Source of the DNA: a virus
Taxonomy: Duplodnaviria > Heunggongvirae > Uroviricota > Caudoviricetes
Reading direction: 5' to 3' (one strand)
Length of the DNA: 64,000 nt
Virus record (IMG/VR): IMGVR_UViG_3300036770_004943
Location: 1 to 64,000 of that record
Below the pieces are notes generated by a model. That model was not told the DNA's origin. It searched no databases and saw only the letters and a list, made by a program, of their open reading frames with translations. Position 1 is the stretch's first letter. Every line of letters begins with the position of its first letter. The position numbers and the translations under genes were made by a program. Positions 3,995 through 41,028 of the stretch are shown one piece after another.

Positions 3995-4020
3995 TAAAAA
4001 TGTTTATTTATAAATATCAA

Positions 4021-4052: not shown

Positions 4053-4224
4053 AAATTATTTTCTTTTTGATTTAGCTTTATCGTATTCTTTTTTCTGTTC
4101 TTCTAATTCTTTTTGCCAAAAGTCAAGATAAATTCTTCTTTCCCACACAGGCATATTTTGAACAGATTCGTAAGAAAACCTCATATGTTTAACCATATAA
4201 TAAATCTCTTTTTTAAGACCTAAA

Positions 4225-4995: not shown

Positions 4996-5155
4996 TATAA
5001 AAACTTTTTTCTAAATTTGTTATTCTAATTAACCTTAAAACTTTTACTATAATAGTAAAGATTATATACATAAATAGATTTATTTTAATTTTTCATATGA
5101 ATTATTTTATTATCTAAGGAAAGATTATTATATTTGTGTATTAATTAATAACGAT

Positions 5156-6127
5156 ATGAAAATGACACAAAATAAATTAACTCGATTAACTGAGGTTCTT
5201 TCAGTACCGACCCACTCTCGTAATGAAAAACTTATGATTGAGTATTTACAAAAAGTTTTAACCGAAAAAGGTTATGACCATTATACTGACTCACACGGTA
5301 ACATTTATGTAACAAAAGGTAACAGTAAAAATTTTCCTTGTTTTGTTGCACATACTGATACCGTCCACCCAATTAATATGAACATGGTAGTTGTACAGAC
5401 AGAAAGTATTGAAGATGGGGTTATTCTTACCGGTATGGACAAAGTCACTAAAAAGGCTTCAGGTATCGGTGGTGACGATAAATGTGGTGTTTATTTAGCT
5501 CTTGAAATGTTGGACACATTACCAAATGTAAAAGCAGCGTTTTTTGTTTCAGAAGAAATTGGTTGTAAGGGTAGTATGTATGCGGACCCAAAATTCTTTG
5601 AGAATGTTGGTTATGTTATTCAATACGATTCTCCAGGTGGAAACTCAATGAGTTTGACATTAATGGGTCGTTACTTGTTTAATCAAAAATCGGAATTCGC
5701 AGATAAAGTATCGGGTTTAATTAAAGAACATGGTATTACTGATTGGGCATATCATCCGTATACTGATGTTTGGCAAATTATGGAAAAGTTTAACATTGCT
5801 TGTTTAAACTTGGCGGCTGGATATTATCGTTATCATACTGATAATGAATATGTTGTTGTCGATGACGTTCAAAACGGTTATGAACTAGGTTTAAAAATTG
5901 TGACAGAACTAGGTGAAAAGAAATACGAAAACCCAAAAGAAGATAGGTATAATAATTCTTATCTTAAAAAATATACAGGAAAAAGTCTTTTAAATGAAGA
6001 AGAAGAAAAAGATGATAATGATATTTTTAATAGTGGGGAATTTATTTATTCTGAACATAATAAAAAAGATTATGGATACGGTCCATATTATGAAAGCCGT
6101 AATTGGGACGAAGATTATGATTGGTAA
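5156..6127 (+). CDS. M42/M20-family metallo-aminopeptidase-like protein.
   Basis: Motifs FVAHTDTVHP (H-x-D metal ligand), GIGGDDKCGV (bridging Asp, compare A-DDR-G of M42) and FFVSEEIGCKGS (Glu-Glu, compare EEVGLRGA), in the order typical of M42/M20 peptidases. Encoded antisense to the tail genes. Confidence 0.55.
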   Translation: MKMTQNKLTRLTEVLSVPTHSRNEKLMIEYLQKVLTEKGYDHYTDSHGNIYVTKGNSKNFPCFVAHTDTVHPINMNMVVVQTESIEDGVILTGMDKVTKKASGIGGDDKCGVYLALEMLDTLPNVKAAFFVSEEIGCKGSMYADPKFFENVGYVIQYDSPGGNSMSLTLMGRYLFNQKSEFADKVSGLIKEHGITDWAYHPYTDVWQIMEKFNIACLNLAAGYYRYHTDNEYVVVDDVQNGYELGLKIVTELGEKKYENPKEDRYNNSYLKKYTGKSLLNEEEEKDDNDIFNSGEFIYSEHNKKDYGYGPYYESRNWDEDYDW

Positions 6128-6132
6128 AAAAT

Positions 6133-6160
6133 AAAGGGACTTAATAGTCCCTTTTTCGTT
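6133..6160. terminator. Bidirectional hairpin terminator between convergent genes.
   Basis: aagggact-TAAT-agtccctt followed by tttttcg, with a T-run on the opposite strand too. Located between 5156-6127 (+) and 6159-6638 (-). Confidence 0.45.
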
Positions 6161-6638
6161 ATTCGTCTTTTAATCTAACCGGGTATTCAACCCCACCTTT
6201 GTCAAAGTAAGAAATTTCAACCTGATCCAAAGTAGCTGGATAATCACCCCCAAAAATAAAGTCAGACACATCTTTTGGTGTACCGTAAATAGATTCTTCA
6301 TCATAAGAACCTAAACCTAAACCAACACTTTTAGCTATCCTAGAGACATCTTGCCAACGTTCATAACCATTTTTATTATAGGATTCAAATAAAGCAATAT
6401 AAAATTTACAAACATTTATAAATCTTTGAAATGATATATCATCGTCAGATTTAAAAGAGACTTCTTCTCTAAGATAAGAATCACCATATTCCCATGTGGT
6501 TTTCATGACAAACACATTAGCAATCTTTGGTCGATTCATGGGTGTTTGGGAAACCTCAAAGGGTAAATCATTTTGACTAAAATTTAATTCGTCAAACCAC
6601 TCAGATTCTTTTAATATTTTTTTTATTAATACTTTCAT
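6159..6638 (-). CDS. Hypothetical protein (159 aa), N-terminal paralog of the next gene.
   Basis: N-terminus MKVLIKKILKESEWFDELNF resembles MKNIIRKILKEEQDEFEWV of 6601-7077. Confidence 0.6.
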   Translation of the reverse strand: MKVLIKKILKESEWFDELNFSQNDLPFEVSQTPMNRPKIANVFVMKTTWEYGDSYLREEVSFKSDDDISFQRFINVCKFYIALFESYNKNGYERWQDVSRIAKSVGLGLGSYDEESIYGTPKDVSDFIFGGDYPATLDQVEISYFDKGGVEYPVRLKDE

Positions 6639-7077
6639 TTAACTGACTTTCTAATTTTTCGATTCTATCTTTTAATTCTTGGATTTCATCTGCAGCTTCT
6701 TCTCTACCTCTATTATACCCTTCTTCTTCCGCCTCTTCTTTTTCCCTATCTGCGTCTTCATAATAAACATAATCGTCACAACAACCTTCACAAGTACAAT
6801 CGTCACGACCAGAATCATAACCAGAATCACGACCATCATCGTAAACCCTTTCTACTTGGTCATACATTTCCTCACCGATTTCCATTAATTTATCAACATC
6901 TTTAATACCGGCATCAACCATCATATCATAAATGTTAAAAGCATCAAAATTATAGTCACTTTCTATTTTAGCAAAAGGTTTTTTGACAGTTTTTTCAGCC
7001 TCGGAAGTATCAAAACCACGAACCCATTCAAATTCGTCTTGTTCTTCTTTTAATATTTTACGGATAATATTTTTCAT
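6601..7077 (-). CDS. Hypothetical acidic protein (158 aa) with CxC..CC cluster and C-terminal coiled coil.
   Basis: ORF with D/E-rich centre (DDCTCEGCCDDYVYYEDADREKEEAEEEG). Shares the N-terminal MKxxIxKILKE motif with the downstream gene. Confidence 0.6.
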   Translation of the reverse strand: MKNIIRKILKEEQDEFEWVRGFDTSEAEKTVKKPFAKIESDYNFDAFNIYDMMVDAGIKDVDKLMEIGEEMYDQVERVYDDGRDSGYDSGRDDCTCEGCCDDYVYYEDADREKEEAEEEGYNRGREEAADEIQELKDRIEKLESQLNESINKKNIKRI

Positions 7078-15163: not shown

Positions 15164-15826
15164 TTAGCTAAGTTTTAGTTTAAAACCATAAGCCTTAAAA
15201 TCAAAAGTAGATATAGAACTTATAGATAAATTTAAATTATCTCTGACTCTAAAAATTAATTTATCAGTTGTACCGGACTTTAATCTAATACCACCCACAT
15301 AGTCAGAATCATAACCGTAATTTTTAAAATTAAAAACACCAAAATAACCACCATCGTTACCAGAAAAAACATTATCAATACGAAAAGAATTAGTACCACT
15401 AGCACCATACGCAGGTTTAAAACCAACCATACGTAGTAAGTCAAAATTAGTAGATAAATTATCCGATATTATTATATCACCATTTAAACTATCTTGATAC
15501 AATAATTGACACCCATTTGTTAAAGGAGGGATGTTAGCGAATTCACCTAACTCAGGGTTAACCAATTCGGCAGCAATAAAAAAATTTAAAGACGTTATAT
15601 AAATATCAAAATCCTTTTCCGCTGATATATAAAAATCTTGTGGAGTTGTTGACCCATCCACTTTCATACTATTTGTAACCCCATCCCCGTTTAAAGTTAA
15701 GTAACTACTAAAAATAAATGTTTTATTGTCAGTTAACGGTGGGGAATCAGAGTCTATTTCAAACAGACTGTATTCGGAAACTTTAGATTTTTTATTTTCT
15801 GCAACAATTTTGGCTGATTTTGACAT
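15164..15826 (-). CDS. Paralog 6 of a six-gene tandem family (220 aa). Structural or receptor-binding role suspected.
   Basis: Shares the central and C-terminal pattern (TLNGDGVTNSMKVDG..DFYI..E.D.DIYIT..NF..AAE) with 15834-16481. Same orientation, 7-nt spacing. Confidence 0.6.
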   Translation of the reverse strand: MSKSAKIVAENKKSKVSEYSLFEIDSDSPPLTDNKTFIFSSYLTLNGDGVTNSMKVDGSTTPQDFYISAEKDFDIYITSLNFFIAAELVNPELGEFANIPPLTNGCQLLYQDSLNGDIIISDNLSTNFDLLRMVGFKPAYGASGTNSFRIDNVFSGNDGGYFGVFNFKNYGYDSDYVGGIRLKSGTTDKLIFRVRDNLNLSISSISTFDFKAYGFKLKLS

Positions 15827-15833
15827 AATAATT

Positions 15834-16481
15834 TTAGTTTATTTTTCTTCTAAAACCATACGCAATTGCGTTGAACTCGGTTGTTGCGGCACCACCTGTA
15901 TTATCGTTTATTTCTAAAACCAATCTATTATTAGTGCCGGCAGCCAGCCTCAACCCCCATTTAAAACCGAAATTTCTAAAATCAAAAACGGGTATAAAGG
16001 CTTCACTAGTACCAATAACATTTGTACCTAAAAAAGCAGCAGTACCAGTACCAAATGCTGGTTGCCCTTGACATAAACGAACAAATTCCCAATTAGAAGT
16101 TAAATTCGTACCAATATTAATTTCACCATTACTGTCTTCATAATAAAACCTACAACCATTTGTTAACGCAGGGGAAGTACCAAACTCAGAAAGTGTTGCT
16201 GATACCGCAGCAATTAAAAAAGAAACTGTGGTTATATATATATCATAATTTGGTTCAGCATTTATAAAAAATCTTTCTGGACTTGCTAATGAACCAGCAA
16301 CCCTCATACTAGTTGTTACCCCATCATTATTAAGGGTTAAGAATTCTCTATAAACCGTTATTTTAGTTTCTTCTCCAACTGGAGGATAAGGAGCTTCTTG
16401 TGTGTAAAGAAAACCTTCAGGGGATACTTTAGCTAAGTATCCATTACCCGTACCATCCTCAATATTTGTTTTTATTGACAT
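15834..16481 (-). CDS. Paralog 5 of the six-gene tandem family (215 aa).
   Basis: N-terminus MSIKTNIEDGTGNGYLAKVSPEGFLY carries the family motif I-x-DGTG-x4-KV. TLNNDGVTTSMRVAG parallels paralog 6. Confidence 0.65.
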   Translation of the reverse strand: MSIKTNIEDGTGNGYLAKVSPEGFLYTQEAPYPPVGEETKITVYREFLTLNNDGVTTSMRVAGSLASPERFFINAEPNYDIYITTVSFLIAAVSATLSEFGTSPALTNGCRFYYEDSNGEINIGTNLTSNWEFVRLCQGQPAFGTGTAAFLGTNVIGTSEAFIPVFDFRNFGFKWGLRLAAGTNNRLVLEINDNTGGAATTEFNAIAYGFRRKIN

Positions 16482-16482
16482 A

Positions 16483-17073
16483 TTATGTTTCTAAAGTTTC
16501 ATAAACATTTAATCCTACTGCAACTTGAACCGAGGTGTTTGATGTTGGTGTGACAAACGAAAAACCTACACTAGAACCTTTTGGTAATGTTGCAACTGAA
16601 CTAATAAATGTTATATTTTGTAATGGAACTACTGGACTTCCAAAGACATCTGACGTTGTTGTAAAACCAGCTCCGTTTTGACCCCTTTCAGTAGTAACTT
16701 CTAAAGTATTAGAACTACCAAAATTAAGATTCGGTGTAGTTACTGATACTGAAGTTCCATTAGTCATAGAACCAGGGTTTCTATAGAAAATAAACCTACC
16801 ATGTGTTTCGGTTGTTCCTGCACTATCTTTAACACTTAAATTAATCCTATCAATAACAATATCGTTATTACCATCATTTGTTAAAAAAAGAATTGCACTT
16901 GTTGCTGAAGACCCAGTTAGTGTAACATATCCTGAGTTAACTGTATACGCGTTACCTTCTCTAGCAGCTTCTGCGTATTCTTCTTTTTGTACTGTTTCCG
17001 TGTAAAGTCTATTTCTATAATCTACTTTAACACCAAAACCGCCACCAGTACCATCTGTTATTTCAAATCCCAT
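16483..17073 (-). CDS. Paralog 4 of the six-gene tandem family (196 aa).
   Basis: MGFEITDGTGGGFGVKVDYRNRLYTETV shows the family N-terminal motif. Genes are spaced 1-22 nt apart. Confidence 0.65.
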   Translation of the reverse strand: MGFEITDGTGGGFGVKVDYRNRLYTETVQKEEYAEAAREGNAYTVNSGYVTLTGSSATSAILFLTNDGNNDIVIDRINLSVKDSAGTTETHGRFIFYRNPGSMTNGTSVSVTTPNLNFGSSNTLEVTTERGQNGAGFTTTSDVFGSPVVPLQNITFISSVATLPKGSSVGFSFVTPTSNTSVQVAVGLNVYETLET

Positions 17074-17095
17074 TTTATTTTATTTTAATAATTTA

Positions 17096-17683
17096 TTATT
17101 CAAAGTAAACTTCCATTTCACAAGTTAAATTAAATGTAACACCATTAGGTGGTTCACACGTTACTGCTAATGAACTTCCCTTATCTAACGTGACCGCTCC
17201 ATTCCACATAAACATTAACATTTGTTGATTCCCAACACCCAAGTAATGTCTACCAAAAACATTTCCGTTTGTAACGGTTAAGAAAGTACCATTTCCTTGA
17301 TACGCTAATCCCTCATAATCATTTGAACTACCAAAATTAATGTTTTGAACGTCCGCAGCAATTGCTGAAGAAATTAATGTTCCTGTTGTAGGGTTTTTAT
17401 ACATATTGATTTTGGTAAATTGACTTGCGGTTCCTGACCATAACTTTATGTGATGAATCAACATTTTTTTATCCGAATTATTTTTAATGTATAAAACACC
17501 GTTTTCTTGTCCAGTAACACCAGTAAGAGAAAGAAAGTTGGTTGAAATAACAAAAGTATTACCTACTTCTATTGAATTATACACCGCTCTTTCTTCGGTA
17601 ATACTATCAACAAGTATTCTATTAAGTTCTGTTACTTTTGCTTTTCTACTAGTTCCTGTTCCGTCTTGTATTTGAAAACCCAT
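17096..17683 (-). CDS. Paralog 3 of the six-gene tandem family (195 aa).
   Basis: MGFQIQDGTGTSRKAKVTELNRILVDSI. Confidence 0.65.
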   Translation of the reverse strand: MGFQIQDGTGTSRKAKVTELNRILVDSITEERAVYNSIEVGNTFVISTNFLSLTGVTGQENGVLYIKNNSDKKMLIHHIKLWSGTASQFTKINMYKNPTTGTLISSAIAADVQNINFGSSNDYEGLAYQGNGTFLTVTNGNVFGRHYLGVGNQQMLMFMWNGAVTLDKGSSLAVTCEPPNGVTFNLTCEMEVYFE

Positions 17684-17702
17684 TTTTTATATTTTTAGTT
17701 TT

Positions 17703-18296
17703 TTATAAAATTATATCACTTAAATAAACTTGAAATCCTGTATAAATTTCGTTTGAGGTTAATCCGTATTGTTGATAAGTTACCACAACTGACGAACCTT
17801 TTTTCAATATAATTTGAACAGTTCCAAAATTTCGTTGAGCAGTACCTTGTGTTTGATATAACACTGGAGTGTTGTTATAACCTGAAACAGTAAATCCGTC
17901 ACCACCCTTTTTAACACCAACATTTAATTCATTTGAAGAACCTATCAATCTGTTTACAGGTGTTAAATCTGTACCAGAACTAATTATTGTCCCTGTTGTT
18001 GGATTTGAGTAAACCCTCATCAAACTTAATCTTGTTGCGGTTCCAGAACTATTATCCGTGCCAATAAACCAAGCGGATAATATTAAATCTTTTTCTTCGT
18101 TATTTTTTAAGTATAAAAGTGGTGTTTCTGATGAACCAGTTACGGTTATAAATTCTGTGTTAATATTGTAAGCTTCACCTTTTGATGTTGCATGGTCAAA
18201 TTCCGATTCAGTAATAGATTTAACATATAACCTATTTTCAGAATCAATTTTAACCTTATATTTTGTACCTGTTCCGTCTTGTATTGTAGTTGCCAT
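17703..18296 (-). CDS. Paralog 2 of the six-gene tandem family (197 aa).
   Basis: MATTIQDGTGTKYKVKIDSENRLYVKSI. Also contains NFGSSN, shared with paralogs 1, 3 and 4. Confidence 0.65.
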   Translation of the reverse strand: MATTIQDGTGTKYKVKIDSENRLYVKSITESEFDHATSKGEAYNINTEFITVTGSSETPLLYLKNNEEKDLILSAWFIGTDNSSGTATRLSLMRVYSNPTTGTIISSGTDLTPVNRLIGSSNELNVGVKKGGDGFTVSGYNNTPVLYQTQGTAQRNFGTVQIILKKGSSVVVTYQQYGLTSNEIYTGFQVYLSDIIL

Positions 18297-18301
18297 ATGT
18301 T

Positions 18302-18895
18302 TTAAATATTAGTTAATTTAGTTACAGTTAGACTAAAACTAACTGGCATTTGTACATTACCTGATGGTGGTGTTATTGCTAACAAAATACTAACACCTTT
18401 AGGGAATACTAAATTCGCCGAAACTTGGTTGTACACGTTAACTGGAAAAGCTAATTGAAATGTAGGGGTTAAACCTGTAAATCCACCAGCACCTGTGGGC
18501 GAACCATACTTAAACGTACCATCCAAACTATTGGAACTACCAAAATTGGTGTTTAGAGGATTAAAATCTACCCAAGTTCCAGTTAAAGAAGATTCGTTAA
18601 CATTTTGATAAACATTCACTAAATAATTTTGGAATGTTGCACCCGATGCCCATCTAGCTTGTGAAGAAAAAGATTTTGAAAATAAAGAAACATCCTCCTC
18701 AAATTTAAAGTATAAAACACCATTTGCAGTGTCACTAGTTTGGGTTAAGAAAGGAGTACCAATGACGTAAGTATCACCATTAATAGCTCCCTCAATTTGA
18801 CTGTCTTCAACAACACCCCTAACTTCAAGTCTATTGGTACTATCTACTTTGGTTGCAAAACCTTTTCCTGTTCCGTCTTCTATAATTGTTGCCAT
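18302..18895 (-). CDS. Paralog 1 of the six-gene tandem family (197 aa).
   Basis: MATIIEDGTGKGFATKVDSTNRLEVRGV, plus NFGSSNSLDG. Confidence 0.65.
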   Translation of the reverse strand: MATIIEDGTGKGFATKVDSTNRLEVRGVVEDSQIEGAINGDTYVIGTPFLTQTSDTANGVLYFKFEEDVSLFSKSFSSQARWASGATFQNYLVNVYQNVNESSLTGTWVDFNPLNTNFGSSNSLDGTFKYGSPTGAGGFTGLTPTFQLAFPVNVYNQVSANLVFPKGVSILLAITPPSGNVQMPVSFSLTVTKLTNI

Positions 18896-25368: not shown

Positions 25369-27192
25369 TTGACCATGGTAGATTTAACCAAATTAAAAAG
25401 TAGAACAAGTTTAGAAAAAATCCGTAATTACAAAGGATCAAATGATCACATCCTTAAAATGAAAAAAAAATTAGAGGATGAGGGCTTTTTTGTTTTAACA
25501 CCAAATCAAATACAGTACATAGAAGACAATTATAATATTGAACCGACAACAATAAATAAAATAGTAGAAATAACCTCTTTTCAGGGAGAACAGTTTAAAG
25601 AAAAATACAATTTAAAAAATATACCAGAAAAGGTTTTTGTCGAACAATTGTTATCTGAAAACGATAAATCCTACCATGTCAAAGGTAAGTTATATAAAAA
25701 TCAAAAAGAATCTGTGCTATTTCATATTGGTAAGACACAAATCCTAACAGACATGTTTTATGAACCTTATGAAGATTTAGAAGTAAATTTTGACTCGGTT
25801 AATAAGATTAATAAGAAAAAAAGAAGTTTGTTCCCGCACCAAGAAAACGCTGTTAAATTTTTATTAAAAAAAGATAAATCTATTTTATCAGATGATATGG
25901 GTCTTGGTAAAACTAAATCCGCTATTGCGGCAGCTTTATTGTCAGGTGCAGAAAAAATATTAGTTATTTGTCCCGCTAACGCAAAGATTAATTGGTTCCG
26001 TGAAATTACAGAATACATTGATGAAGAATATGTAACAATAGTAAAATCCGGTTTTTGGCAACCTAAGTTTTTCACCATTATTAATTACGATATTCTTAAT
26101 AGATTTCATGAAATAGAAGATAAACGAAAAAAAACCGAACCTAAAAGTTATATTAATGAAGAAAATTTTGATTTATTAATTGTCGATGAAGCACATATGA
26201 TTAAAAACAAAGGTTCTATTCGTGGTAAAGTTGTTTCACAAATTTCCGAAAATATTGAAAAAATTTGGTTGTTAACAGGTACACCTATTGCTAATAGACC
26301 AATGGATTATTATAACTTATTAAAGGTATGTAAAATTCCTGTAGCAGACAACTTTCAACACTTTGCTTATCGATATTGTGCAGCAAAATCTTTTAATAAG
26401 AAACTTAAATCAGGTAAGGTAAAAAGAATTTGGTTGACTGATGGGGCCTCTAATTTAGAAGAACTACACCAAAAAACTAAAAATTATATTCTTCGTCGAA
26501 AAAAAGAAGATCATTTAGATTTACCCCCAAAAATTATTTCACCATTTTATTTAGATTTAGAAAATCGTAAAGGTTATAAAGAGGCTTTTGATGATTATTT
26601 ATTTTGGTTAGAGGTTGAGGGTAAAAAACTAGGTGCAGGTAGACAAATGGTTGAAATGGGTGTTCTTAGGAAATTTCTTTCAAAAGAAAAAGTTTCAATG
26701 ACCGTGGATATGGTTCACAATTTTTTAGAACAATCTGATGATAAAAAAATTATCATTTTCACTGTTTTTACGGATTCATTAAAAGAACTTAAAAAAGAAT
26801 TTGGTGAACTAGCTGTTTGTCATAATGGTGAAATGTCTGATAAAGAAAAACAAAAATCTATCGACGAATTCCAAAATAACCCAAAAATCAGAGTTTTTAT
26901 CGGTAATATTATTTCGGCTGGTTCTGCTATTACATTAACCGCTTCTGATACTACGATATTTCATGATTTAGATTTTGTTCCGGCAAATCACCAACAAGCA
27001 GAGGATAGAAATTATCGTATAGGCCAAGATAAAACAGTTAATATCTATTACCCTATTTTTAACGATACTATCGAAGAAAAAATTTACGAAACGTTACAAA
27101 AGAAAAAAGAAATTATATCTACAGTTATGGGTGAAAAATTAGAATCCATAGATATAATGGAAGATTTATTAACTTCTTTATTAAAAAAATAA
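25369..27192 (+). CDS. SNF2/RAD54-family DNA helicase-translocase.
   Basis: Motif I DDMGLGKTKSAIAAAL, motif II LLIVDEAHMIKN, motif III LLTGTPIANRPMDYYNLL. C-terminal helicase domain carries IFHDLDFVPANHQQAEDRNYRIGQ (motif VI QAEDRxxRIGQ). Confidence 0.8.
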   Translation: MTMVDLTKLKSRTSLEKIRNYKGSNDHILKMKKKLEDEGFFVLTPNQIQYIEDNYNIEPTTINKIVEITSFQGEQFKEKYNLKNIPEKVFVEQLLSENDKSYHVKGKLYKNQKESVLFHIGKTQILTDMFYEPYEDLEVNFDSVNKINKKKRSLFPHQENAVKFLLKKDKSILSDDMGLGKTKSAIAAALLSGAEKILVICPANAKINWFREITEYIDEEYVTIVKSGFWQPKFFTIINYDILNRFHEIEDKRKKTEPKSYINEENFDLLIVDEAHMIKNKGSIRGKVVSQISENIEKIWLLTGTPIANRPMDYYNLLKVCKIPVADNFQHFAYRYCAAKSFNKKLKSGKVKRIWLTDGASNLEELHQKTKNYILRRKKEDHLDLPPKIISPFYLDLENRKGYKEAFDDYLFWLEVEGKKLGAGRQMVEMGVLRKFLSKEKVSMTVDMVHNFLEQSDDKKIIIFTVFTDSLKELKKEFGELAVCHNGEMSDKEKQKSIDEFQNNPKIRVFIGNIISAGSAITLTASDTTIFHDLDFVPANHQQAEDRNYRIGQDKTVNIYYPIFNDTIEEKIYETLQKKKEIISTVMGEKLESIDIMEDLLTSLLKK

Positions 27193-27242: not shown

Positions 27243-28388
27243 ATGGCTCTAATAATAGAAGAAGCGGAAAAACAAAAATTATTTCGTCAAGTTAGACATA
27301 GATTAGGCGCTCCTTTAAGGAAGATAGAATTATCTGATGAACAAATGTGTACCTTATTAGAGATAGCTGTTGAAGATCATTCTTCATATATTAATGAATG
27401 GCTAATTGAGGCTCAATGGTCATCATTAGATGGTATTAATTTAGATACAACAGATTTGGCTAAAGCCTTAACAACTAAATCACAAGGATATGAAGATTCT
27501 TTTACTTATGCTTACTCAAAAATAGTTGGTTTACAAGCAAGAGGTCCTTGGGAATTAAAACAGGATTACGTCACATTAGAAAATGGTAGACAAGTGTATT
27601 CAATTCCGGCGGGACGTGAAATCAATGAAGTGCTATACTTTCAACCACCAACAGTGGATTATGCATTATATTCAAATTATGGTTTTGGTGATTATGGTTT
27701 TGGTGGAGGTATCTCTCAATTACCTTATGGTGCCGCAGGTGGTGGGTTTGGTTATGGCGGATTTTATTTAGCTCCGGCATATGATATTGTTTTAAGAAAT
27801 GCGGATTACAATTTAAAACAAAGACTTGTTAGTTCAGAATTAATTTATTGGTTAACAGCGGGACCTAGCGGTACTAGATTATTACACTTATCACCACCAC
27901 CAGGTAGTAGATTATCTTTTGGTAGGAGTGGGTTTGCTGGCGGTCAAACAATAAACGTGGGTGGTGCTAGAGTTTGGTATTGGTATTACGAAACCACTTC
28001 TGATGAAGACAGACAAAGATGTTTAAACGCAAACAAAGACATTGTGAAATTACCTTCTGACGTTCCAGTGGATGTTGTAAATTTTACTGAGTTAAATACA
28101 CCATCAAAACAATGGGTTAGAGATTGGTTTACGGCTTTATGTAAAGAAACCCTTGGTCGTGTTAGAGGTAAATTTGGTGGTTCACTTGGTGTTACCGATG
28201 CAGAAGTAACAATGGATTATGAATCACTATTAAGTGAATCAAGAGAGGATAGAACGACTTTATTAGAAAGGTTGAATCAAAGATTAGAAAGATTACGTCC
28301 TGATAATATGTTAACACGTAAAGCTACTGAAGCTGAACAGTTAAATAAAGCATTACAATACAGGCCTTTAGGAATAACAGTTATATAA
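27243..28388 (+). CDS. Hypothetical protein (381 aa) with a Gly/Tyr/Phe-rich central low-complexity segment.
   Basis: Long ORF. Segment YGFGDYGFGGGISQLPYGAAGGGFGYGGFY. Upstream of three plus-strand fiber genes, so possibly a structural adaptor. Confidence 0.55.
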   Translation: MALIIEEAEKQKLFRQVRHRLGAPLRKIELSDEQMCTLLEIAVEDHSSYINEWLIEAQWSSLDGINLDTTDLAKALTTKSQGYEDSFTYAYSKIVGLQARGPWELKQDYVTLENGRQVYSIPAGREINEVLYFQPPTVDYALYSNYGFGDYGFGGGISQLPYGAAGGGFGYGGFYLAPAYDIVLRNADYNLKQRLVSSELIYWLTAGPSGTRLLHLSPPPGSRLSFGRSGFAGGQTINVGGARVWYWYYETTSDEDRQRCLNANKDIVKLPSDVPVDVVNFTELNTPSKQWVRDWFTALCKETLGRVRGKFGGSLGVTDAEVTMDYESLLSESREDRTTLLERLNQRLERLRPDNMLTRKATEAEQLNKALQYRPLGITVI

Positions 28389-28389
28389 T

Positions 28390-31068
28390 ATGCCTTTTTA
28401 TACAAGACCCAATTTTGAAGATAGACAGATTGTACAGTACAGTGCTACTTCAATTACATTATCAGGTAATACAAATATAAATCAAACAGGACAAATTAAT
28501 ATATTTGGACCTATTTTGGATTTTACTGGTACCACAACAGCTAGTACTTTATATACTGTTGCGGGACTTTCAGGGTACCTTAATTATGGTAATATATCAG
28601 GTTTAAAAGTAGAACCACCTGTTTTATATATAAGTGGATCGACAGGTACTACAACTGTCGATATAACAGGTTATTATTTAGGTTCTTTAGATTCTGGTGG
28701 TACTGTGACTTGGATTACTCCCGTTAGTAGTACATTTACAGGTGGTACAGGTTCTTGTATTACTGATTTATATGTTACAAATATTCACGGGTGTTCACCC
28801 ATAACAATATGGGATCAAATACAATACAATGGAAGTAGTGCGATAACACAGTACAGTACTTCTTTTGGTTATTTAACAAAAGCGGAAGGTAATTTTTCAC
28901 ACTCAGAAGGTTATATATCAATGGCGATAGGAGATTCGTCACATGCTGAGGGTGATAGTACGATAGCTCAAGGTAGTTTTTCACACGCTGAAGGCCAAAG
29001 TGCACAAGCAATAGGACAAGGGTCACATGCGGAAGGTAGGCAAACAATCGCAACTGGTGATACGTCACATGCGGAAGGTTATTTAACAAAGGCTGATGGT
29101 GATTATTCACATTCAGAAGGTAGACAAACAAGTGCGATAGGTTATATTTCACATGCGGAAGGCGGTAATACTATAGCTAGTGGTAATGGTTCACATGCAG
29201 AAGGTAGTTTTACCTCAGCTTTTGGTGACATTTCACATTCAGAAGGTTATTTTACTGTTGCAATAGGTAATTCGTCACATGCTGAGGGTTTTGATACAAT
29301 ATCTGGTTGGAAAGGTTTTTCAGTAATTGATGTGACTAACGGAATTGTAACTTTAGATTCTTCTTATGGTGACGTAACAACCGAATTTCCTAATTTATTT
29401 TTAACAGATAATTGTGTACTAGGTAATATAGTTGTAACTTATAATGCGGTAGTTTATACTGGTACCAGTACCGAATTATATTTAACCGAGAATATAAGTG
29501 GTTTTTATCCTTATGTCGCTGATTTATATTTTTTAAATAGTACTTACGCTAATAATGTTTTAGGTGATTATTCCCACGCTGAAAATGAATCGAAAGCACT
29601 AGGTATTAGTTCCCATGCGGAAGGGACATCAACTTCTCTTGGTTATGTATCTCATGCTGAAGGATTTGGGAATTATGCTATGGGTACTGGATCTCATGCT
29701 GAAGGTAATAATACTAGAGCTATTGGGTCTGGTTCACACAGTCAAGGATATTTTACTGTAGCATCTGGTGACTATTCTTACGCTGGCGGTAATCAAACAC
29801 ATTCAATTGGTGACTACTCTTTTGCCATGGGTCAAGGTCTTATAAGTGATATAGATAACCAGTCAGTTTTTGGTAAATTTAATGTTACAGGTCTCACAAG
29901 TTTATTTGTAATAGGTAACGGTAGCTCAAGTTCTTCTAGAAGTAATTTATTATCTGTAACTGATTTAGGTATTGGTTATGGTGTGGTTAATGTTTCAGGT
30001 AAAACTATAACAACAAACTTACAAATAACATCAGGAGCTACAGCTGGTTATGTTTTAACCGCTTTGGATTCAGATGGTAATGTATCTTGGCAAATACCGG
30101 GTGGAAGTGGTGGTACAACAATAGTACAGTTTACTGGTAACACGTCCGCAAGTTGTATTACCGATTTATATGTACATAATTTATACGGTTGTTCACCTAT
30201 TTTATTACATGACACAATCTCAGGAAATTCAACCAATAATTATTTTGACATCTCATCTACTAATGATAACATAAAATTATATACAAAATATAGTGGATTA
30301 GACACTTTTTTATCAATGGGTAGTGACTATAATGGTGTTAAACTACAATCAGGGACCAACCAATATTTACAACTCGCTGGTGGTGGAGCCACATTTATAG
30401 CACCTAATCAAATATTTTTATCCACTAATAATAAATCATTAAATCAATTAGATTCTTACGGCTTAGAAATAGGTATTCAAGATATTTTAAGTACAGGAGG
30501 TTCAATTTTTAGTGTTAGATCTAACAGTAGTGCGGGTAGTTTAACCGGTGGTAATTTAACCGGTGGTACATTACAGTCTGAAATTATTTTAGGTAAACCC
30601 AACGCCTCCCAAGTAGGATTACCGTCAGGTGTTATGGGTACTGGTTTGGGTACCGGAACCAACATCTATGGGGTGGTTGGTTATGATTTTTACCCAGTTT
30701 TTATATCAACCCCAAGATCTAGAGCATACGACACGTCAACTTACAGCTCAATTAAAAATGTGTTATTTGGTGGTGGTAGTGATAATTCAGTATATAGTGG
30801 TACCACTAATTCATCTTTAATTGGTGGTAGTGGTAATACAATCACCAACAATTTAAAAAATGTTGTCGTATTAGGTGGTGAAGGTATAACCGCAACAACT
30901 TCCAATACGGTTTATGTTCCAGATTTAATAATTAAAAAATCAAACTCCGTACCAACAACAAGCGGTGATACTGTTGGGGATATTGGTTCTGTTACATGGG
31001 ATAATAATTATTTATATGTAAAAACAAATAACGGTTGGGGGAGAGTTAATTTAGATTATAGTTGGTAA
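28390..31068 (+). CDS. Tail fiber / receptor-binding protein (892 aa) with YadA-head-like (Hep_Hag-type) 14-aa tandem repeats.
   Basis: At least 10 consecutive repeats of the form SH(A/S)EGxxTxAxGxx (FSHSEGYISMAIGDSSHAEGDSTIAQGSFSHAEGQSAQAIGQGSHAEG...) and a second block of 5. Also the fiber motif GYVLTALDSDGNVSWQIP. G/T/S/N-rich beta composition. Confidence 0.65.
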   Translation: MPFYTRPNFEDRQIVQYSATSITLSGNTNINQTGQINIFGPILDFTGTTTASTLYTVAGLSGYLNYGNISGLKVEPPVLYISGSTGTTTVDITGYYLGSLDSGGTVTWITPVSSTFTGGTGSCITDLYVTNIHGCSPITIWDQIQYNGSSAITQYSTSFGYLTKAEGNFSHSEGYISMAIGDSSHAEGDSTIAQGSFSHAEGQSAQAIGQGSHAEGRQTIATGDTSHAEGYLTKADGDYSHSEGRQTSAIGYISHAEGGNTIASGNGSHAEGSFTSAFGDISHSEGYFTVAIGNSSHAEGFDTISGWKGFSVIDVTNGIVTLDSSYGDVTTEFPNLFLTDNCVLGNIVVTYNAVVYTGTSTELYLTENISGFYPYVADLYFLNSTYANNVLGDYSHAENESKALGISSHAEGTSTSLGYVSHAEGFGNYAMGTGSHAEGNNTRAIGSGSHSQGYFTVASGDYSYAGGNQTHSIGDYSFAMGQGLISDIDNQSVFGKFNVTGLTSLFVIGNGSSSSSRSNLLSVTDLGIGYGVVNVSGKTITTNLQITSGATAGYVLTALDSDGNVSWQIPGGSGGTTIVQFTGNTSASCITDLYVHNLYGCSPILLHDTISGNSTNNYFDISSTNDNIKLYTKYSGLDTFLSMGSDYNGVKLQSGTNQYLQLAGGGATFIAPNQIFLSTNNKSLNQLDSYGLEIGIQDILSTGGSIFSVRSNSSAGSLTGGNLTGGTLQSEIILGKPNASQVGLPSGVMGTGLGTGTNIYGVVGYDFYPVFISTPRSRAYDTSTYSSIKNVLFGGGSDNSVYSGTTNSSLIGGSGNTITNNLKNVVVLGGEGITATTSNTVYVPDLIIKKSNSVPTTSGDTVGDIGSVTWDNNYLYVKTNNGWGRVNLDYSW
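28870..29300 (+). repeat. In-frame 42-nt tandem repeat (about 10 copies) encoding SHAEG 14-aa units.
   Basis: tcacatgc(g/t)gaaggt recurs every 42 nt: 28897, 28938, 28981, 29023, 29065, 29107, 29149, 29191, 29233, 29275. Confidence 0.7.
29560..29800 (+). repeat. Second block of diverged 42-nt SHAEG-type repeats (about 5 copies).
   Basis: tcccacgctgaaaat / tcccatgcggaaggg / tctcatgctgaagga / tctcatgctgaaggt / tcacacagtcaagga, at 42-nt spacing. Confidence 0.55.
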
Positions 31069-31069: not shown

Positions 31070-33151
31070 ATGGATATAAAAAACAATTACTATTTTAAAA
31101 GTTTTGAGGGTATAAACTTAGTTTATAACGAATATTGGGATTTTAACCTAATAGCCGATAAAAACGGTGATTTATTACCATATATCACAACTTGTAAAGA
31201 ATCGGATAGTTATGGTATTATTACCGACAAATTAGTAACATGGTTTGATATAAACAACGATGATACAACAATAGATGGTAGTTATTTAAGTTCATTAATC
31301 GAATGGACTGCTACTACAATAACACCTTCAACTGGGTTTACTTTAAACGATTGGGGTTTAACGGGTGTCGACAACGGTAGGGTGTATTGTCTGTCAGGTG
31401 AAAGTTTAGTTATAACTTCAGCTGATACTAAATTAATTTTATACCCAGTTACAGGTATTACCGTAAATTATAATTTTAATTCTGGATGTACGGTTACAAA
31501 TGGTTTATATACTTATAATTGGGCATTTCATGAAAATAATACGATAGGTGATTGTACTGTTGGTGATACTATTTGTTTAAATGGTGGTTTCTACCAAGGA
31601 TTTTTTAAATTAGATAGGGATAAACCCACACCTGTTAAAAGATTAACCGATGACAACTGTGGTACAACTGGTTACACATTAACTTATTTATCGGGTGTAA
31701 CAGAAAATTGGCAAATAATGCCAACCTCTTACGAAGATGGTTGGACGATGGAAACATGGATTAATTGGGACAATCAATTTTGTTTAACAGGATCCACGGG
31801 TTTAACATTAAATAATGTGTACCCTAATAACAGTAACTTCTTTTTTTATATCGGTACTAGATCTGAAAATAAATTTTGGAATAATTTTTCAGGTGAAACC
31901 GGTTTAACTACTACAACAGGTATACCGTTATCTTTAAACGAGACATTGTTATATGACGAGAAAATTGTTGAACCTAATAGTGGACAAAGTTGGTTTACTA
32001 AAAGTTCTAAAATAGGTTGTATATGCCCTTGTCACAATACGTGCCAAACAAATGACTATACTGATAAAAACATTATTACAGGAGGCCAAAATTGGTTTGA
32101 TTTAGGATCAAACACTGTTGGTTGTTGTAGTAATTGTTCTGGTGTTACTGAAACTACTGTGGTTACAGGTATGAGTTATTCTTATTGTGACCAATTATCT
32201 GAAAACGCTTTAGGGTTTAGAATAACTAATGACGGTAGGATTGGTTATAGAAAATTAACTGTAACTGGTGATTGTTATAACAATAAATTTAGGGTAACTG
32301 GAACTGTGATGGAAGAAGGTTACTCGGAACAATATGTTATACCGACTGGTAATACGTGGACTCATATAACTGTTACTTATACACCTGGGGGTTTTAAAAA
32401 TACTTTACCTTCTGGTGTTTTAAAGTTTTGGATTAACGGGTTAGTTAAATATAGAGTTGAAGACTTCATAGGGTTACAACTAAGAGCTCTTAATGAGTGG
32501 AGTGATAAACAAATCGGTGTCCCATTTAATATAAGCTGGGGTGGTGGGACACAAGGTCTAGCGGAAAGTCAAACATTTAACGGTCCTGATTATAATGATA
32601 GAAATTTATTAATAGAACAAAATTTTGCCGGTAATTTTGAGGGTGAATTATCACAATTAAGGTTTTATGAAAAACCACTTAATGTCTTAGAAATTAGAAA
32701 TAATTTTTTTGTAGATTGTAATAGATATTGTAGACCTGACACTTTCGGCGGAGCCCTAACAGTTCAACCAAATTATAGTATGTGTACAAAATGTGGTACG
32801 GTTGTTAAACCAAAATATAAACCTAGAGTTTATTACGGAAAATATATAAACCCAACTATCGATGTTATAGGTGTAAATTCTTTATTAACACAAATAATCA
32901 CAAGTGTTAATAATAACTATGGTATAACAATACCGGCAGGTGGCGGTTATGGTTATATATTAATACCTGTGGACCAAGCACAGCCTAGTGATTTTGTTAA
33001 CAGTACAACTTCTTGTAGTGGGTTTAACATACCTATGATTACACAATCAGTTATAACCGTAACAGACGTTGATGGTTATGATATAAATTACGTTGTTTAC
33101 AGAACTTTTAATTACATTAACGGTAACATTAATGTTTGGTTGTGTAGTTAA
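31070..33151 (+). CDS. Tail fiber / receptor-binding protein (693 aa) with Cys-rich segment and C-terminal LamG/concanavalin-like domain.
   Basis: Cys cluster CICPCHNTCQ...GCCSNCSG. C-terminal half has WTHITVTYTPGG...LKFWINGLVKYRV...GNFEGELSQLRFYEKPLNVLEIRNNF, matching the Laminin_G_3 jelly-roll pattern (W.H..., ..NG......, F.G.I..LR.Y...L...EI..). Confidence 0.55.
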   Translation: MDIKNNYYFKSFEGINLVYNEYWDFNLIADKNGDLLPYITTCKESDSYGIITDKLVTWFDINNDDTTIDGSYLSSLIEWTATTITPSTGFTLNDWGLTGVDNGRVYCLSGESLVITSADTKLILYPVTGITVNYNFNSGCTVTNGLYTYNWAFHENNTIGDCTVGDTICLNGGFYQGFFKLDRDKPTPVKRLTDDNCGTTGYTLTYLSGVTENWQIMPTSYEDGWTMETWINWDNQFCLTGSTGLTLNNVYPNNSNFFFYIGTRSENKFWNNFSGETGLTTTTGIPLSLNETLLYDEKIVEPNSGQSWFTKSSKIGCICPCHNTCQTNDYTDKNIITGGQNWFDLGSNTVGCCSNCSGVTETTVVTGMSYSYCDQLSENALGFRITNDGRIGYRKLTVTGDCYNNKFRVTGTVMEEGYSEQYVIPTGNTWTHITVTYTPGGFKNTLPSGVLKFWINGLVKYRVEDFIGLQLRALNEWSDKQIGVPFNISWGGGTQGLAESQTFNGPDYNDRNLLIEQNFAGNFEGELSQLRFYEKPLNVLEIRNNFFVDCNRYCRPDTFGGALTVQPNYSMCTKCGTVVKPKYKPRVYYGKYINPTIDVIGVNSLLTQIITSVNNNYGITIPAGGGYGYILIPVDQAQPSDFVNSTTSCSGFNIPMITQSVITVTDVDGYDINYVVYRTFNYINGNINVWLCS

Positions 33152-38623: not shown

Positions 38624-39322
38624 TTATAATCCATACCTACCTTTATGTGTATTATAATTTTGTAATACTTCCGATGGTGATAATGATTTATTACTATAAA
38701 TTCTAACTATAGGAATTCTACCAAAAAATTGTGTATCCCCAGCAGTCCTATTACCAATTTTCGCTGTTATACCTAAATCACTCCAAAGAAAATTAGTTCT
38801 TGTTTGTGATGTATTTTCTACACCATTAATATATATTTTTACATTATTATTATTTTTCACCACAACTATATGGTACCAAGTATTTAATAATATCAATGAA
38901 GTGCTACTTACCACTGGATTCATGTTAGGACCTCCATCTCCACCAATAAAAAAATTACCCCCATTCGCTACCGCCATAACGGTTGAATTTATATTAAATA
39001 TTGTATCTATACCTAATATGTTTGACCTAAAACTAGTCCCTAAACCAGTTCTATAAATCCAAGTTTCTATAGACCAATTACTAAAATTATTTAAATTTAA
39101 TAAAATATTTTTATCTGTCTGAGCGTATTCCCCATTAAAAACTAAACTACCCATATTATTATTACTAAAGGTAGGTTGACTACTTAAAGTCCAATCTTTT
39201 AAATTAGAACTTAAATCAGACCAAATAAGACCAGAACCAGGGTATGATTTAATGTTAGCGGTGTCTAAACACAAAACTAAACCATCGGTTACAATATTCC
39301 CACCACCTTGTGTTGTACTCAT
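38624..39322 (-). CDS. LamG/concanavalin-like domain protein (232 aa), paralog A.
   Basis: VTDGLVLCLDTANIKSYPGSGLIWSDLS..., WYHIVVVKNNNNVKIYINGVE, RIPIVRIYSNKSLSPSEVLQNYN. Laminin_G_3-type pattern. Confidence 0.6.
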   Translation of the reverse strand: MSTTQGGGNIVTDGLVLCLDTANIKSYPGSGLIWSDLSSNLKDWTLSSQPTFSNNNMGSLVFNGEYAQTDKNILLNLNNFSNWSIETWIYRTGLGTSFRSNILGIDTIFNINSTVMAVANGGNFFIGGDGGPNMNPVVSSTSLILLNTWYHIVVVKNNNNVKIYINGVENTSQTRTNFLWSDLGITAKIGNRTAGDTQFFGRIPIVRIYSNKSLSPSEVLQNYNTHKGRYGL

Positions 39323-39588
39323 AATGTCATTGGATCTGGGTTAGTCCATTCTGGAGTTGATAATATTGTTAATATTTCTTCGTATGAAAATGGACCTTCT
39401 TTAGTTGTTAAACTATCTACCGATGAAGGAACTCCTTCAGTATTCCATTTAACAAATGTTTTTGTTTCATCAACCGATTTTCTTACCGTGTCAATTGAAG
39501 TTTCACATACTTGAGTGAAATCGATATTTGATAGTTCACTAACATCAAATATCATAAATTTTCTGTTTTCGTATAATTGTTTTTCCAT
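39319..39588 (-). CDS. Small hypothetical protein (89 aa).
   Basis: ORF between LamG paralogs, 4-nt overlap with downstream gene. Confidence 0.4.
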   Translation of the reverse strand: MEKQLYENRKFMIFDVSELSNIDFTQVCETSIDTVRKSVDETKTFVKWNTEGVPSSVDSLTTKEGPFSYEEILTILSTPEWTNPDPMTL

Positions 39589-39592
39589 ATTT

Positions 39593-40294
39593 TTATAAAT
39601 TAAATCTTCCTTTTAGTGCATTGTAGTTTTGAAGAACTTCTGACGATGTAAGTAATCTATTATAAAACTTAGTGGTCGATACTCTGCCGTTAAAATTAAA
39701 ACTCCCCACTCCGTAAGCGCAAATTTTAGAAGTTGAATTACCGCCAAAAGTGCCTGAAGCGGTGTCAGTATATATTAAATTACCATTAAGATAGAGTGAT
39801 GAAACAGAACCATTTCTGGTTATGGTTATCTCAAAAAACTGATTTATTGGGTACCAACTACTCCCTAACTCAGTACCGATAGATAATATTTTACTACCAC
39901 CATAAACATTTATAGCCGCATTCGTGGTAAGTTGTCCACCAGTACCCGGACCTAGGGCTAACGCTCCGGTATTATTACCACCTAAGTCTTGAACATATTT
40001 ATAAGTTCTATCTAATTTATATAACCAATACGAAATGCTAAAAGCGTTTGACCCAAAATTAAAAGATGGTATTGAAACATAATCATTAGTCCCATCAAAA
40101 ACAATAGCACCTCCATTATCACCATTCCATATGGTTTGAGAACCAAAATTAGTTAAAGTACCATTATTCCCATTACCACTTAAATCTCCCCATAAAGTTC
40201 CTGTTCTTGGATAAGAATCTTTTTTACCGGCATCTAAATGTAATACTAGACCATTTCTTACTATACCTCCGTAATATGATATTCTTCCTGACAT
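39593..40294 (-). CDS. LamG/concanavalin-like domain protein (233 aa), paralog B.
   Basis: RNGLVLHLDAGKKDSYPRTGTLWGDLSGNGNNGTLTNF is the classic Laminin_G_3 N-terminal motif. C-terminus LTSSEVLQNYNALKGRFNL. Confidence 0.65.
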   Translation of the reverse strand: MSGRISYYGGIVRNGLVLHLDAGKKDSYPRTGTLWGDLSGNGNNGTLTNFGSQTIWNGDNGGAIVFDGTNDYVSIPSFNFGSNAFSISYWLYKLDRTYKYVQDLGGNNTGALALGPGTGGQLTTNAAINVYGGSKILSIGTELGSSWYPINQFFEITITRNGSVSSLYLNGNLIYTDTASGTFGGNSTSKICAYGVGSFNFNGRVSTTKFYNRLLTSSEVLQNYNALKGRFNL

Positions 40295-40299
40295 AATTT

Positions 40300-41028
40300 T
40301 TAATTTAAATTGTATCTTGATTTTAATGCGTTGTAGTTTTGAATTATTTCTGTTGCGGATAATGTACGATTATACATAATTTGAGGACCTAACCACACTT
40401 TTTGACCCACAGATGCTCCGTCACCACCCATAAATTTTAATGTATTTGTGTTATTGTTTACGTCTCTACTATATGGGTCAGTTAAAGTTTGTAATAGGTT
40501 TCCGTTAAGATATAATTTATATTCATAAATTGATTTAGTTACGCAAACAAAAGACCATTTATTACTAACGACCGAGCTATAATCTATGGTAGGTATTACA
40601 TCTGTATTTGGGGGTGTGGGGGCCGAACCTGTTAATCTAAAATACAATCCATTATAAACACCACCTCTAAAAGAAAGTACTACACCTGAATTACCATTAG
40701 TTGTGCCCTTACCTAAAATATCCGCCCTTGTTAAAATGGTTGTAATTGTTAGATTACAATAAACGAAACCACAATAAGACCATGTGGGTGGAATTTGAAA
40801 GTCGGAGAAAGTGGTACCAACTTGTACGTAACTATCAACACCATCACTTTTAATAATTCCATTGTTAATTGTATCAAATGTTGGACTATTAATTAAATTA
40901 ACATTATAATTATTTCTACTTAAATCAGTCCATATTGTACCAGAACCAAGATATGATTTGGTATTAGCCGCGTCTAAATACAACACAAGACCATCAGTTA
41001 CTATGCGTGGACTAAAATTATAACTCAT
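40300..41028 (-). CDS. LamG/concanavalin-like domain protein (242 aa), paralog C.
   Basis: IVTDGLVLYLDAANTKSYLGSGTIWTDLSRNNYNVNL. C-terminus LSATEIIQNYNALKSRYNLN. Confidence 0.6.
   Translation of the reverse strand: MSYNFSPRIVTDGLVLYLDAANTKSYLGSGTIWTDLSRNNYNVNLINSPTFDTINNGIIKSDGVDSYVQVGTTFSDFQIPPTWSYCGFVYCNLTITTILTRADILGKGTTNGNSGVVLSFRGGVYNGLYFRLTGSAPTPPNTDVIPTIDYSSVVSNKWSFVCVTKSIYEYKLYLNGNLLQTLTDPYSRDVNNNTNTLKFMGGDGASVGQKVWLGPQIMYNRTLSATEIIQNYNALKSRYNLN

Follow-up and report, generated by a model that had tools for sequence, protein, structure and literature searches.

What kind of protein is made by a phage gene that carries the repeats of a bacterial surface adhesin, and do those repeats behave as a switch? 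The question is raised by an 892-residue open reading frame (ORF) of a 64,000-nucleotide (nt) window, by which we mean the whole stretch of DNA analysed, positions 1 to 64,000 of the IMG/VR virus record IMGVR_UViG_3300036770_004943. A sequence-only reading of the window took the product for a receptor-binding protein with SHAEG repeats resembling those of the YadA head, and proposed that the repeat array, being prone to slippage, might switch fiber length or host range. In our reading the product is a virion fiber, modular and presumably trimeric, with an exchangeable YadA-like beta-roll cassette that is diversified by recombination; we give this reading a probability of about 0.75. The parts of the gene are as follows, with residue numbers referring to the encoded protein.

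28390..31068, plus strand: fiber ORF, 892 residues, stop codon included; the exact protein (P0001) is found on five contigs
28390..28815, plus strand: conserved N-terminal domain, residues 1-142, the presumed virion-attachment part
28726..28809, plus strand: first copy of the junction motif, residues 113-140, FTGGTGSCITDLYVTNIHGCSPI, left cassette border
28855..28896, plus strand: degenerate leading repeat unit, residues 156-169 (...GYLTKAEGNF), in 42-nt register with block 1
28897..29316, plus strand: SHAEG block 1, residues 170-309, ten consecutive SH(A/S)EG units of 14 residues (42 nt) at exact spacing by motif scan; predicted beta-roll
29317..29571, plus strand: inter-block insert of about 85 residues, residues 310-394, with a predicted local distance difference test score (pLDDT) of 27-38
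29572..29859, plus strand: SHAEG block 2, residues 395-490, five strict and two degenerate units by motif scan
29860..30129, plus strand: array cap and linker, residues 491-580, containing GYVLTALDSDGNVSW at 30046-30090
30130..30219, plus strand: second copy of the junction motif, residues 581-610, FTGNTSASCITDLYVHNLYGCSPI, right cassette border
30220..31065, plus strand: conserved C-terminal region, residues 611-892, 57-67% identical to homologues P0006, P0017, P0121, P0123 and P0124

The motif scan agrees with the sequence-only count of about ten plus five copies. The strict units of block 2 are SHAEN, SHAEG (three times) and SHSQG, the degenerate ones are SYAGG and SFAMG, and their spacing is 13, 13, 14, 14, 14 and 14 residues. 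The insert between the blocks has homologous counterparts between the SHAEG blocks of 15 other proteins, and the cap and linker stretch, which is 65-67% identical to P0006 and P0017, is also found in many non-orthologous SHAEG proteins. The fiber motif GYVLTxxDSDGNVSW that had been noticed in the same protein is present as GYVLTALDSDGNVSW at residues 553-567, with a degenerate copy, GYYLGSLDSGGTVTW, at residues 94-108.

The assignment of the repeats to the YadA-head or Hep_Hag type proved sound. The score for Pfam YadA_head (PF05658) was 58.5 bits (cut-off 25; E 7.3e-16), with its best stretch at residues 177-197. When the PDB sequences were searched by phmmer, two heads alone were matched, that of BpaC (7o23, E 1.9e-6) and the collagen-binding one of YadA (1p9h, E 4.9e-5), in both of which S[IV]A[IV]G was aligned with SHAEG. 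An AlphaFold2 monomer model of the full protein, made with a 30-sequence alignment, had an overall mean pLDDT of 54.8, with values of 86-98 at residues 150-300 (block 1) and 76-89 at residues 400-470 (block 2). The repeat blocks were modelled as alternating five- and three-residue strands per 14 residues, and the degenerate leading unit as a strand at residues 157-161. Upon comparison with the PDB by Foldseek the top 13 matches were all YadA-like heads of trimeric autotransporters, namely BpaC (7o23), BoaA (3s6l), CbpF (9gh4 and 9gh5), YadA (1p9h), AtaA (3wp8), EibD (2xqh) and UspA1 (3ntn), most with a probability of 1.0 and with E values down to 3e-9; no phage structure was among the PDB matches of the repeat model. 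By fold match the repeats are therefore of the YadA-head type and are predicted to form a parallel beta-roll that is left-handed, with two strands per turn, which is the fold that the sequence-only reading had expected of a structure prediction.

The window units share with the autotransporter heads the 14-residue (7+7) skeleton S-x-A-x-G-x-x-[ST]-x-A-x-G-x-x, their own profile being S-H-A-E-G-x-x-T-x-A-x-G-x-x. Across 17 units serine is invariant, as is Ala or Ser at position 3; position 5 is Gly in 94%, and positions 8, 10 and 12 are Thr (71%), Ala (71%) and Gly (76%), respectively. The units depart from YadA at positions 2 and 4, where the Val or Ile (SVAIG) looked for in YadA_head repeats is replaced by His (88%) and Glu (82%). 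Both residues reach 99% in 3,062 units from 119 homologues, a figure that partly reflects selection because those units were chosen by a SHAEG-like pattern. Judged from these sequences, His and Glu at positions 2 and 4 appear to mark a distinct 'SHAEG' subtype of the YadA_head repeat. Six other unit positions (6, 7, 9, 11, 13 and 14) are highly variable.

As Pfam YadA_head and the PDB and Foldseek matches all lead to autotransporter heads, and as the Joint Genome Institute (JGI) labels some homologues 'autotransporter adhesin', the gene might be taken for a bacterial trimeric autotransporter adhesin and the window for bacterial rather than viral DNA. We consider the chance of this to be negligible. 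The YadA anchor (PF03895) was not found in the whole protein at E values up to 0.1 or in its C-terminal pieces at values up to 10, no anchor, stalk or neck domain appeared at permissive thresholds, and an anchor or stalk was listed for none of the top 120 homologues. DSSP assigned no helix to any of the 892 residues of the model, and hence no coiled-coil stalk or neck, and the N-terminus, MPFYTRPNFEDRQ, is polar without a hydrophobic stretch like that of a signal peptide. The surroundings are those of a phage, with sheath, neck, baseplate-like and DNA polymerase genes, and relatives of the fiber were found on IMG/VR viral contigs and in none of 185,579 representative bacterial and archaeal genomes. 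The lack of an anchor and the setting among phage genes thus refute a type Vc trimeric autotransporter adhesin: what the window protein shares with these adhesins is the head repeat, whereas signal peptide, neck, coiled-coil stalk and membrane anchor are lacking and the gene lies in a phage structural operon.

The remark that such repeats are also used by some phage fibers was well founded. More than 7,200 homologues came out of a protein search at E <=1e-5; the best of them carry 9-46 units, and the repeats are often accompanied in the homologues by Peptidase_G2, Peptidase_S74, Mtd_N, collagen or DUF2793. Matches in BFVD bear names such as 'Trimeric autotransporter adhesin YadA-like head domain-containing protein' or 'LbR_YadA-like' and belong to uncultured Caudovirales phages (for example A0A6J5N938 and A0A6J5LUW0), Pithovirus and Klosneuvirus. 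A YadA domain has also been reported in a pelagiphage tail fiber, where the YadA region under-recruits metagenomic reads (Mizuno et al. 2014, PMC3909814). Our literature search found no paper that pairs SHAEG with phage. As YadA-like heads are already annotated in many viral fibers, the kind of protein is known. These viral proteins resemble that of the window in having the repeat fold inside a viral fiber, often together with Peptidase_S74 or Peptidase_G2 chaperone domains, and none of them has a solved structure among the PDB matches. The window protein differs from them in two ways: its array, instead of forming a C-terminal tip, is inserted within the chain between N- and C-terminal regions that are conserved, and its gene goes together with that of a gp13-like neck protein.

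Do the repeats constitute a switch? The 42-nt periodicity on which that proposal rested is real, although weak. The 15-mer TCACATGCGGAAGGT (at most three mismatches) occurs 14 times in the fiber gene, one match lying at 28876 in the degenerate leading unit, whereas dinucleotide shuffles of the whole window gave a mean of 0.68 matches and none of 100 shuffles reached 15. The DNA autocorrelation of block 1 is 0.60 at lag 42 versus about 0.25 at neighboring lags, and a repeat search found nine copies in 42-nt register at 61-74% identity. Tandem Repeats Finder (TRF), the check that had been proposed, reported no 42-nt array in the fiber gene, either at a minimum score of 30 or in a separate run. 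This negative result is meaningful because the same settings detect a 42-nt array of 19.9 copies in the gene of P0041, a sister-lineage homologue.

The divergence of the units is evident at several levels. Their mean DNA identity is 61%, made up of 85% in the 15-nt core and 48% in the other 27 nt. Pairs of units are 48-76% identical, and neighbors are no more alike (0.60) than distant units (0.62). Exact direct repeats reach no more than 20 nt, the longest having its copies 336 nt apart. Where two units have the same amino acid, they also share the codon at a frequency of 0.60 (synonymous codon identity), compared with 0.48 predicted from local codon usage, and this surplus stems mainly from the first serine codon. 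That codon is always TCA in block 1 and is TCC or TCT in block 2, and therefore the two blocks probably have separate histories. At the DNA level, then, the units are old and diverged.

A contingency locus, in which the 42-nt array would grow and shrink by slipped-strand mispairing or unequal recombination and so act as a fast and reversible switch of fiber length or host range, is accordingly very unlikely. It would account for the periodicity, for exact 15-nt cores at 42-nt spacing (29023 and 29065) and for the differences in array length among relatives, which are considerable: the copy-number comparison that had been called for gave 0 to 27 strict units. Its best case is P0041 (locus L025), which has 27 strict units, including recently duplicated, near-identical multi-unit stretches, versus nine in the otherwise 97%-identical L014. 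However, the absence of a TRF array, unit identities as low as 48% with adjacent units no closer than distant ones, and synonymous sites near the codon-usage expectation all speak against slippage in the window gene. The protein was identical on all five contigs that carry it and its 90% cluster is a single sequence, albeit a small sample; there is no variant of at least 90% identity in the collection, and near-identical variants with another copy number were found neither in a metagenome scan, which gave only distant relatives, nor in a genome scan. Even the difference between P0041 and L014 does not have the form of slippage. The two share 97.9% identity for 1885 nt, after which the value falls to 71%, with the breakpoint inside the SHAEG array, which argues that the distal segment was replaced by recombination and that the difference is not a clean unit indel. 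The slippage-prone length or host-range switch of the sequence-only reading is thus unsupported.

Minor features of the fiber gene include an antisense ORF of 125 residues (28775-29152, minus strand) inside the repeat array, which most likely arises from the repeat itself and does not constitute a gene. TRF reported two short repeats within the gene and nothing else: a 15-nt unit in 2.3 copies (GGTAATTTAACCGGT, 94% matches) at 30535-30568 on the plus strand, encoding GSLTGGNLTGGTL in the C-terminal region, and a weak 9-nt repeat at 28673-28695.

If not by slippage, how do these fibers come to differ? Relatives were collected as a set of 20 loci, 18 from a scan of viral contigs (IMG/VR) with an alignment of the N-terminal domain and two by exact protein look-up. 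The genes that frame the fiber gene in the window, and by which the loci were compared, are these.

25369-27192: SNF2 helicase, 607 residues, upstream of the gp13-like gene
27243..28388, plus strand: T4 gp13-like neck or head-tail adaptor gene, 381 residues; PF26809 Phage_T4_gp13 (precomputed), PHROG 211 and BLASTP to T4 gp13
31070..33151, plus strand: downstream gene, 693 residues, in the same tight operon; weak Laminin_G_3 (concanavalin-A-like lectin) match, 23 bits versus a cut-off of 27.6

The gp13-like gene stands directly before the fiber gene in all 20 loci (70-95.5% identity). Within the DNA examined per locus, the helicase was present in 17 loci (53-93%) and the downstream gene in 13 (48-70% identity over its first 580 or so residues). 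Between these conserved genes only the first 25-140 residues of the fiber are conserved across the 20 loci, the remainder being mosaic or replaced, in some cases by Peptidase_S74-like or other C-termini. The first 25-35 or so residues (MPFxTRPNFEDRQxVQYSGxSITLSG) are the only part common to the whole orthologue set. The N-terminal domain is 60-77% identical to those of P0006, P0053, P0056, P0062, P0098, P0050 and P0085, and nine homologues from the first search share the N-terminal 140 or so residues at 40-77% identity, some of them also the C-terminus. A conserved N-terminus followed by mosaic distal parts is the pattern of tail fibers and receptor-binding proteins, and it holds across the 20 syntenic loci.

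Strict SHAEG counts in this set range widely: nine complete genes have none, three have one, three have four or five, and single genes have seven and ten, with the window (14) and P0041 (27) at the upper extreme. The closest relative with a complete fiber gene, L021, has a gp13-like protein 95% identical to that of the window and an 807-residue fiber with no SHAEG unit. Between window positions 25000 and 28490 the DNA of L021 is 86% identical; beyond that it cannot be aligned except for one junction island, and homology resumes at 31070, the start of the downstream gene. Variation among the relatives is thus better explained, from these alignments, as replacement of whole cassettes with breakpoints at conserved junctions than as gain and loss of single units.

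The junction island is a 73-nt stretch at 28735-28806 that encodes FTGGTGSCITDLYVTNIHGCSPI; it is 93% identical to L021 (6619-6691) and 89.7% to L018, whereas its flanks cannot be aligned. The junction motif, FTGxTxxxCITDLYVxNxxGCSPI, is present twice in the window protein as part of a fuller module, GYxLxxxDSxGxxxW ... FTGxTxxxCITDLYVxNxxGCSPI, at residues 94-140 and 553-610. The two copies are 1398 nt apart and have 79% DNA identity over 48 nt, and further copies mark the borders of modules in orthologues and in many fibers. What lies between the copies became apparent from a search with residues 600-892, which gave two minimal fibers of 430 residues, P0121 and P0123. In these a single junction module links the N-terminal domain to the C-terminal region. 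P0121 aligned with window residues 1-158 at 66% and with residues 535-892 at 60%, and both proteins correspond to residues 1 to about 142 plus about 535 to 892, with one junction in place of the two of the window. Hence, the window protein can be described as this backbone plus a cassette of about 410 residues (about 143-552), which comprises in order a lead-in, block 1, the insert of about 85 residues, block 2 and the cap. The lead-in (CSPITxWD ... GSxAxGxxSxxFG) is also found ahead of SHAEG arrays elsewhere, in orthologues as well as in unrelated fibers, which suggests that junction and array travel as a unit.

Short conserved motifs that border unrelated segments and coincide with recombination breakpoints have a parallel in the 'His box' motifs of T-even phages, which Tetart, Desplats and Krisch in 1998 reportedly found to mediate module exchange in the distal tail-fiber genes gp37/gp38. 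The window junctions differ from the His box in motif sequence and protein family, and in that the exchanged unit is a mid-fiber cassette. A more ambitious and improbable pair of linked ideas is that the duplicated FTGxTxxxCITDLYVxNxxGCSPI might be a dedicated 'plug', kept at the DNA level, for insertion, deletion and exchange of mid-fiber cassettes across lineages, and that the SHAEG subtype might be a virus-specific beta-roll in which a ladder of His and Glu lines the trimer axis or one face and binds ions or responds to pH. The T4 gp37 tip, which has His-lined metal sites, offers an analogy for such a ladder. If true, the plug idea would provide a general recombination grammar for fiber shafts.

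Given the cassette and its borders, the scheme that we favor for the fiber is as follows. The conserved N-terminal domain would attach the fiber to the particle, at the neck or collar or possibly at the baseplate; the former site may hold because the fiber gene directly follows the T4 gp13-like gene. Into a simpler backbone would be inserted the cassette of about 410 residues, in which beta-roll arrays of 11 and 7 turns, the insert and the cap follow one another. The beta-roll is most likely a rigid, laterally exposed segment acting as shaft or adhesin, and as YadA-type rolls rise by about 0.5 nm per turn it would lengthen the fiber by roughly 9 nm, with the variable unit positions 6, 7, 9, 11, 13 and 14 offered for contact with the host surface. 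Over evolutionary time homologous recombination at the junction motifs and inside the arrays would swap, insert or delete whole cassettes between phages, and replication slippage within the window array would not be the source of diversity. Context and mosaicism make a receptor-binding role plausible.

Several points weigh against this scheme. A pLDDT of at least 70 was reached by only 266 of the 892 residues, or about 30%, and the N-terminal domain, the inter-block insert and most of residues 565-806 gave low-confidence models in both predictions. The second prediction, of residues 600-892 with a focused alignment, had a mean pLDDT of 55.6, and the only confident pieces of the C-terminal region in the models were residues 789-844 and 865-890 (pLDDT about 80). 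In the AlphaFold2 models the C-terminal region has three short beta-helix rungs (residues 789-844) and a terminal beta-hairpin (residues 868-887, YLYVKTNNGWGRVN), and upon comparison of the residue 600-892 model with the PDB by Foldseek nothing scored below E 0.02, the matches being generic left-handed beta-helix enzymes. When the N-terminal, insert, linker and C-terminal pieces were scanned against Pfam and PHROG at permissive thresholds, only sub-threshold noise was obtained, for example CshA_repeat at 20 bits versus a cut-off of 27. We infer that the protein forms a trimer, that it is present in the virion at a given position and that it adheres to or binds a receptor, and likewise the junction motif is a candidate recombination site by virtue of the breakpoint positions. 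Finally, in the sub-lineage of the window the alignments indicate a conserved C-terminus and a variable middle, the reverse of the usual pattern of receptor-binding proteins; therefore the array may serve as a spacer, the specificity lying in some other place such as the downstream protein.

That the beta-roll array is only a structural spacer, with specificity in another domain or in the lectin-like 693-residue protein encoded downstream, we regard as possible but rather unlikely. P0006, P0017, P0121 and P0123 have the same N- and C-termini without any SHAEG unit, and therefore the array is dispensable for fiber assembly. The downstream protein, with its weak concanavalin-A-like lectin signal, has a body that is conserved, the first 525-583 or so residues being matched in its orthologues, and a C-terminal segment of about 110 residues that is unmatched, which suggests that this segment is variable; from its sequence the protein is possibly a partner fiber or adhesin or a second host-recognition protein. 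However, the fold itself binds ligands in bacterial adhesins, the PDB entries including the YadA collagen-binding domain and CbpF with CEACAM1. Moreover, six of the 14 unit positions are highly variable, as expected of an exposed interaction surface, and the cassette is exactly the part that close relatives exchange.

The position of the fiber on the particle raises another alternative. The protein might be a neck or collar fiber, a functional analogue of the T4 fibritin whiskers or the phi29 appendages, with its N-terminus on the gp13-type neck and a role in early reversible adhesion or environmental sensing; we consider this doubtful, though worth keeping in mind. It is favored by the constant position of the gene directly downstream of the gp13-like gene (20/20 loci), which recalls that the T4 whisker gene wac likewise adjoins gene 13, and by the conservation of both termini around a variable middle. 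T4-type fibritins have conserved ends with a variable middle. Many homologues carry the phi29-appendage-type Peptidase_G2, and by eye the C-terminal beta-hairpin loosely resembles the fibritin foldon, AYVRKDGEWVLL, a likeness that no tool detected. On the other side, gene adjacency is weak evidence for position on the particle, and isolate phages annotate similar modules as tail spike or tail fiber. The fiber has no similarity to T4 wac (best BLASTP E 2.9), and no helix or coiled coil was predicted anywhere in it. The protein is not a fibritin because it has neither wac similarity nor a coiled coil: a conserved-ended fiber with a C-terminal beta-hairpin whose gene adjoins gene 13 is what the two have in common, and even the adjacency, the only link of fibritin identity to survive, differs in that the window fiber gene follows gene 13 whereas wac precedes it. 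BLASTP of the fiber against T4 gp12 was likewise not significant.

The modular fiber with an exchangeable cassette therefore remains our preferred reading, and it bears first on annotation: the protein should be named a phage fiber protein with a YadA-like beta-roll cassette and not an autotransporter adhesin, the label that some pipelines give its homologues. At this locus a hypervariable fiber gene is cleanly set between well-conserved helicase, gp13-like neck and downstream genes, and its identifiable cassette borders could be useful for the design of chimeric fibers or for host-range prediction in uncultivated large myoviruses. It opens no new question, as YadA-like repeats of viral fibers are already catalogued and the slippage switch is unsupported; the clean cassette borders and the virus-typical SHAEG repeat variant are what is worth remembering.

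The wider neighborhood includes further genes of a large phage.

12038-14842: tail sheath
38624-41028, minus strand: three tandem paralogues of 232, 233 and 242 residues, 30-35% identical; PHROG 24074 / 8510 (virion structural protein), weak baseplate-wedge matches
45733-48645: DNA polymerase

The fiber gene lies among virion structural genes, directly after the gp13-like gene and with sheath and baseplate-like genes within 20 kb. The gaps between the gp13-like stop and the fiber start and between the fiber stop and the start of the downstream gene are 1 nt each, and a promoter and terminator scan of 24.5-34 kb gave counts equal to the shuffled expectation. The gp13-like protein matches PHROG 211 ('head-tail adaptor Ad2', E 1e-9), and BLASTP matches both of its ends to T4 gp13 (E 7e-7 and 3e-4). 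The source of the window is an uncultivated large myovirus of 31% G+C, the contigs of whose lineage are 130-320 kb. Among 50,697 phage records there was no match to 20 kb of window DNA (Megablast) or to the gp13-like protein (tblastn), and tblastn of the fiber against the same records matched only the repeat region of unrelated phages, the region that is annotated there as tail spike or tail fiber.

Some side observations concern the neighbors. Six tandem paralogous genes encoding proteins of 195-220 residues (15164-18895, minus strand; 26-40% pairwise identity) adjoin the tail sheath gene, and the three that were scanned had no Pfam or PHROG match. The baseplate-wedge-like paralogues are flanked by two very large ORFs of 1459 and 1281 residues; the latter has a weak match to PHROG 23630 (E 8e-7) and a sub-threshold 'phage tail repeat', and no other family was found for either. 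In a 194-kb relative (L006) the orthologous SNF2 helicase (3951-6818) has 955 residues and carries Hom_end_hint and LAGLIDADG_3 signals of an intein or homing endonuclease that are absent from the 607-residue window copy. The gp13-like protein has a Gly/Tyr/Phe-rich low-complexity stretch at about residues 145-175 (YGFGDYGFGGGISQLPYGAAGGGFGYGGFY), which lies outside the recognizable similarity to T4 gp13 because both BLASTP segments are at the ends of the protein.

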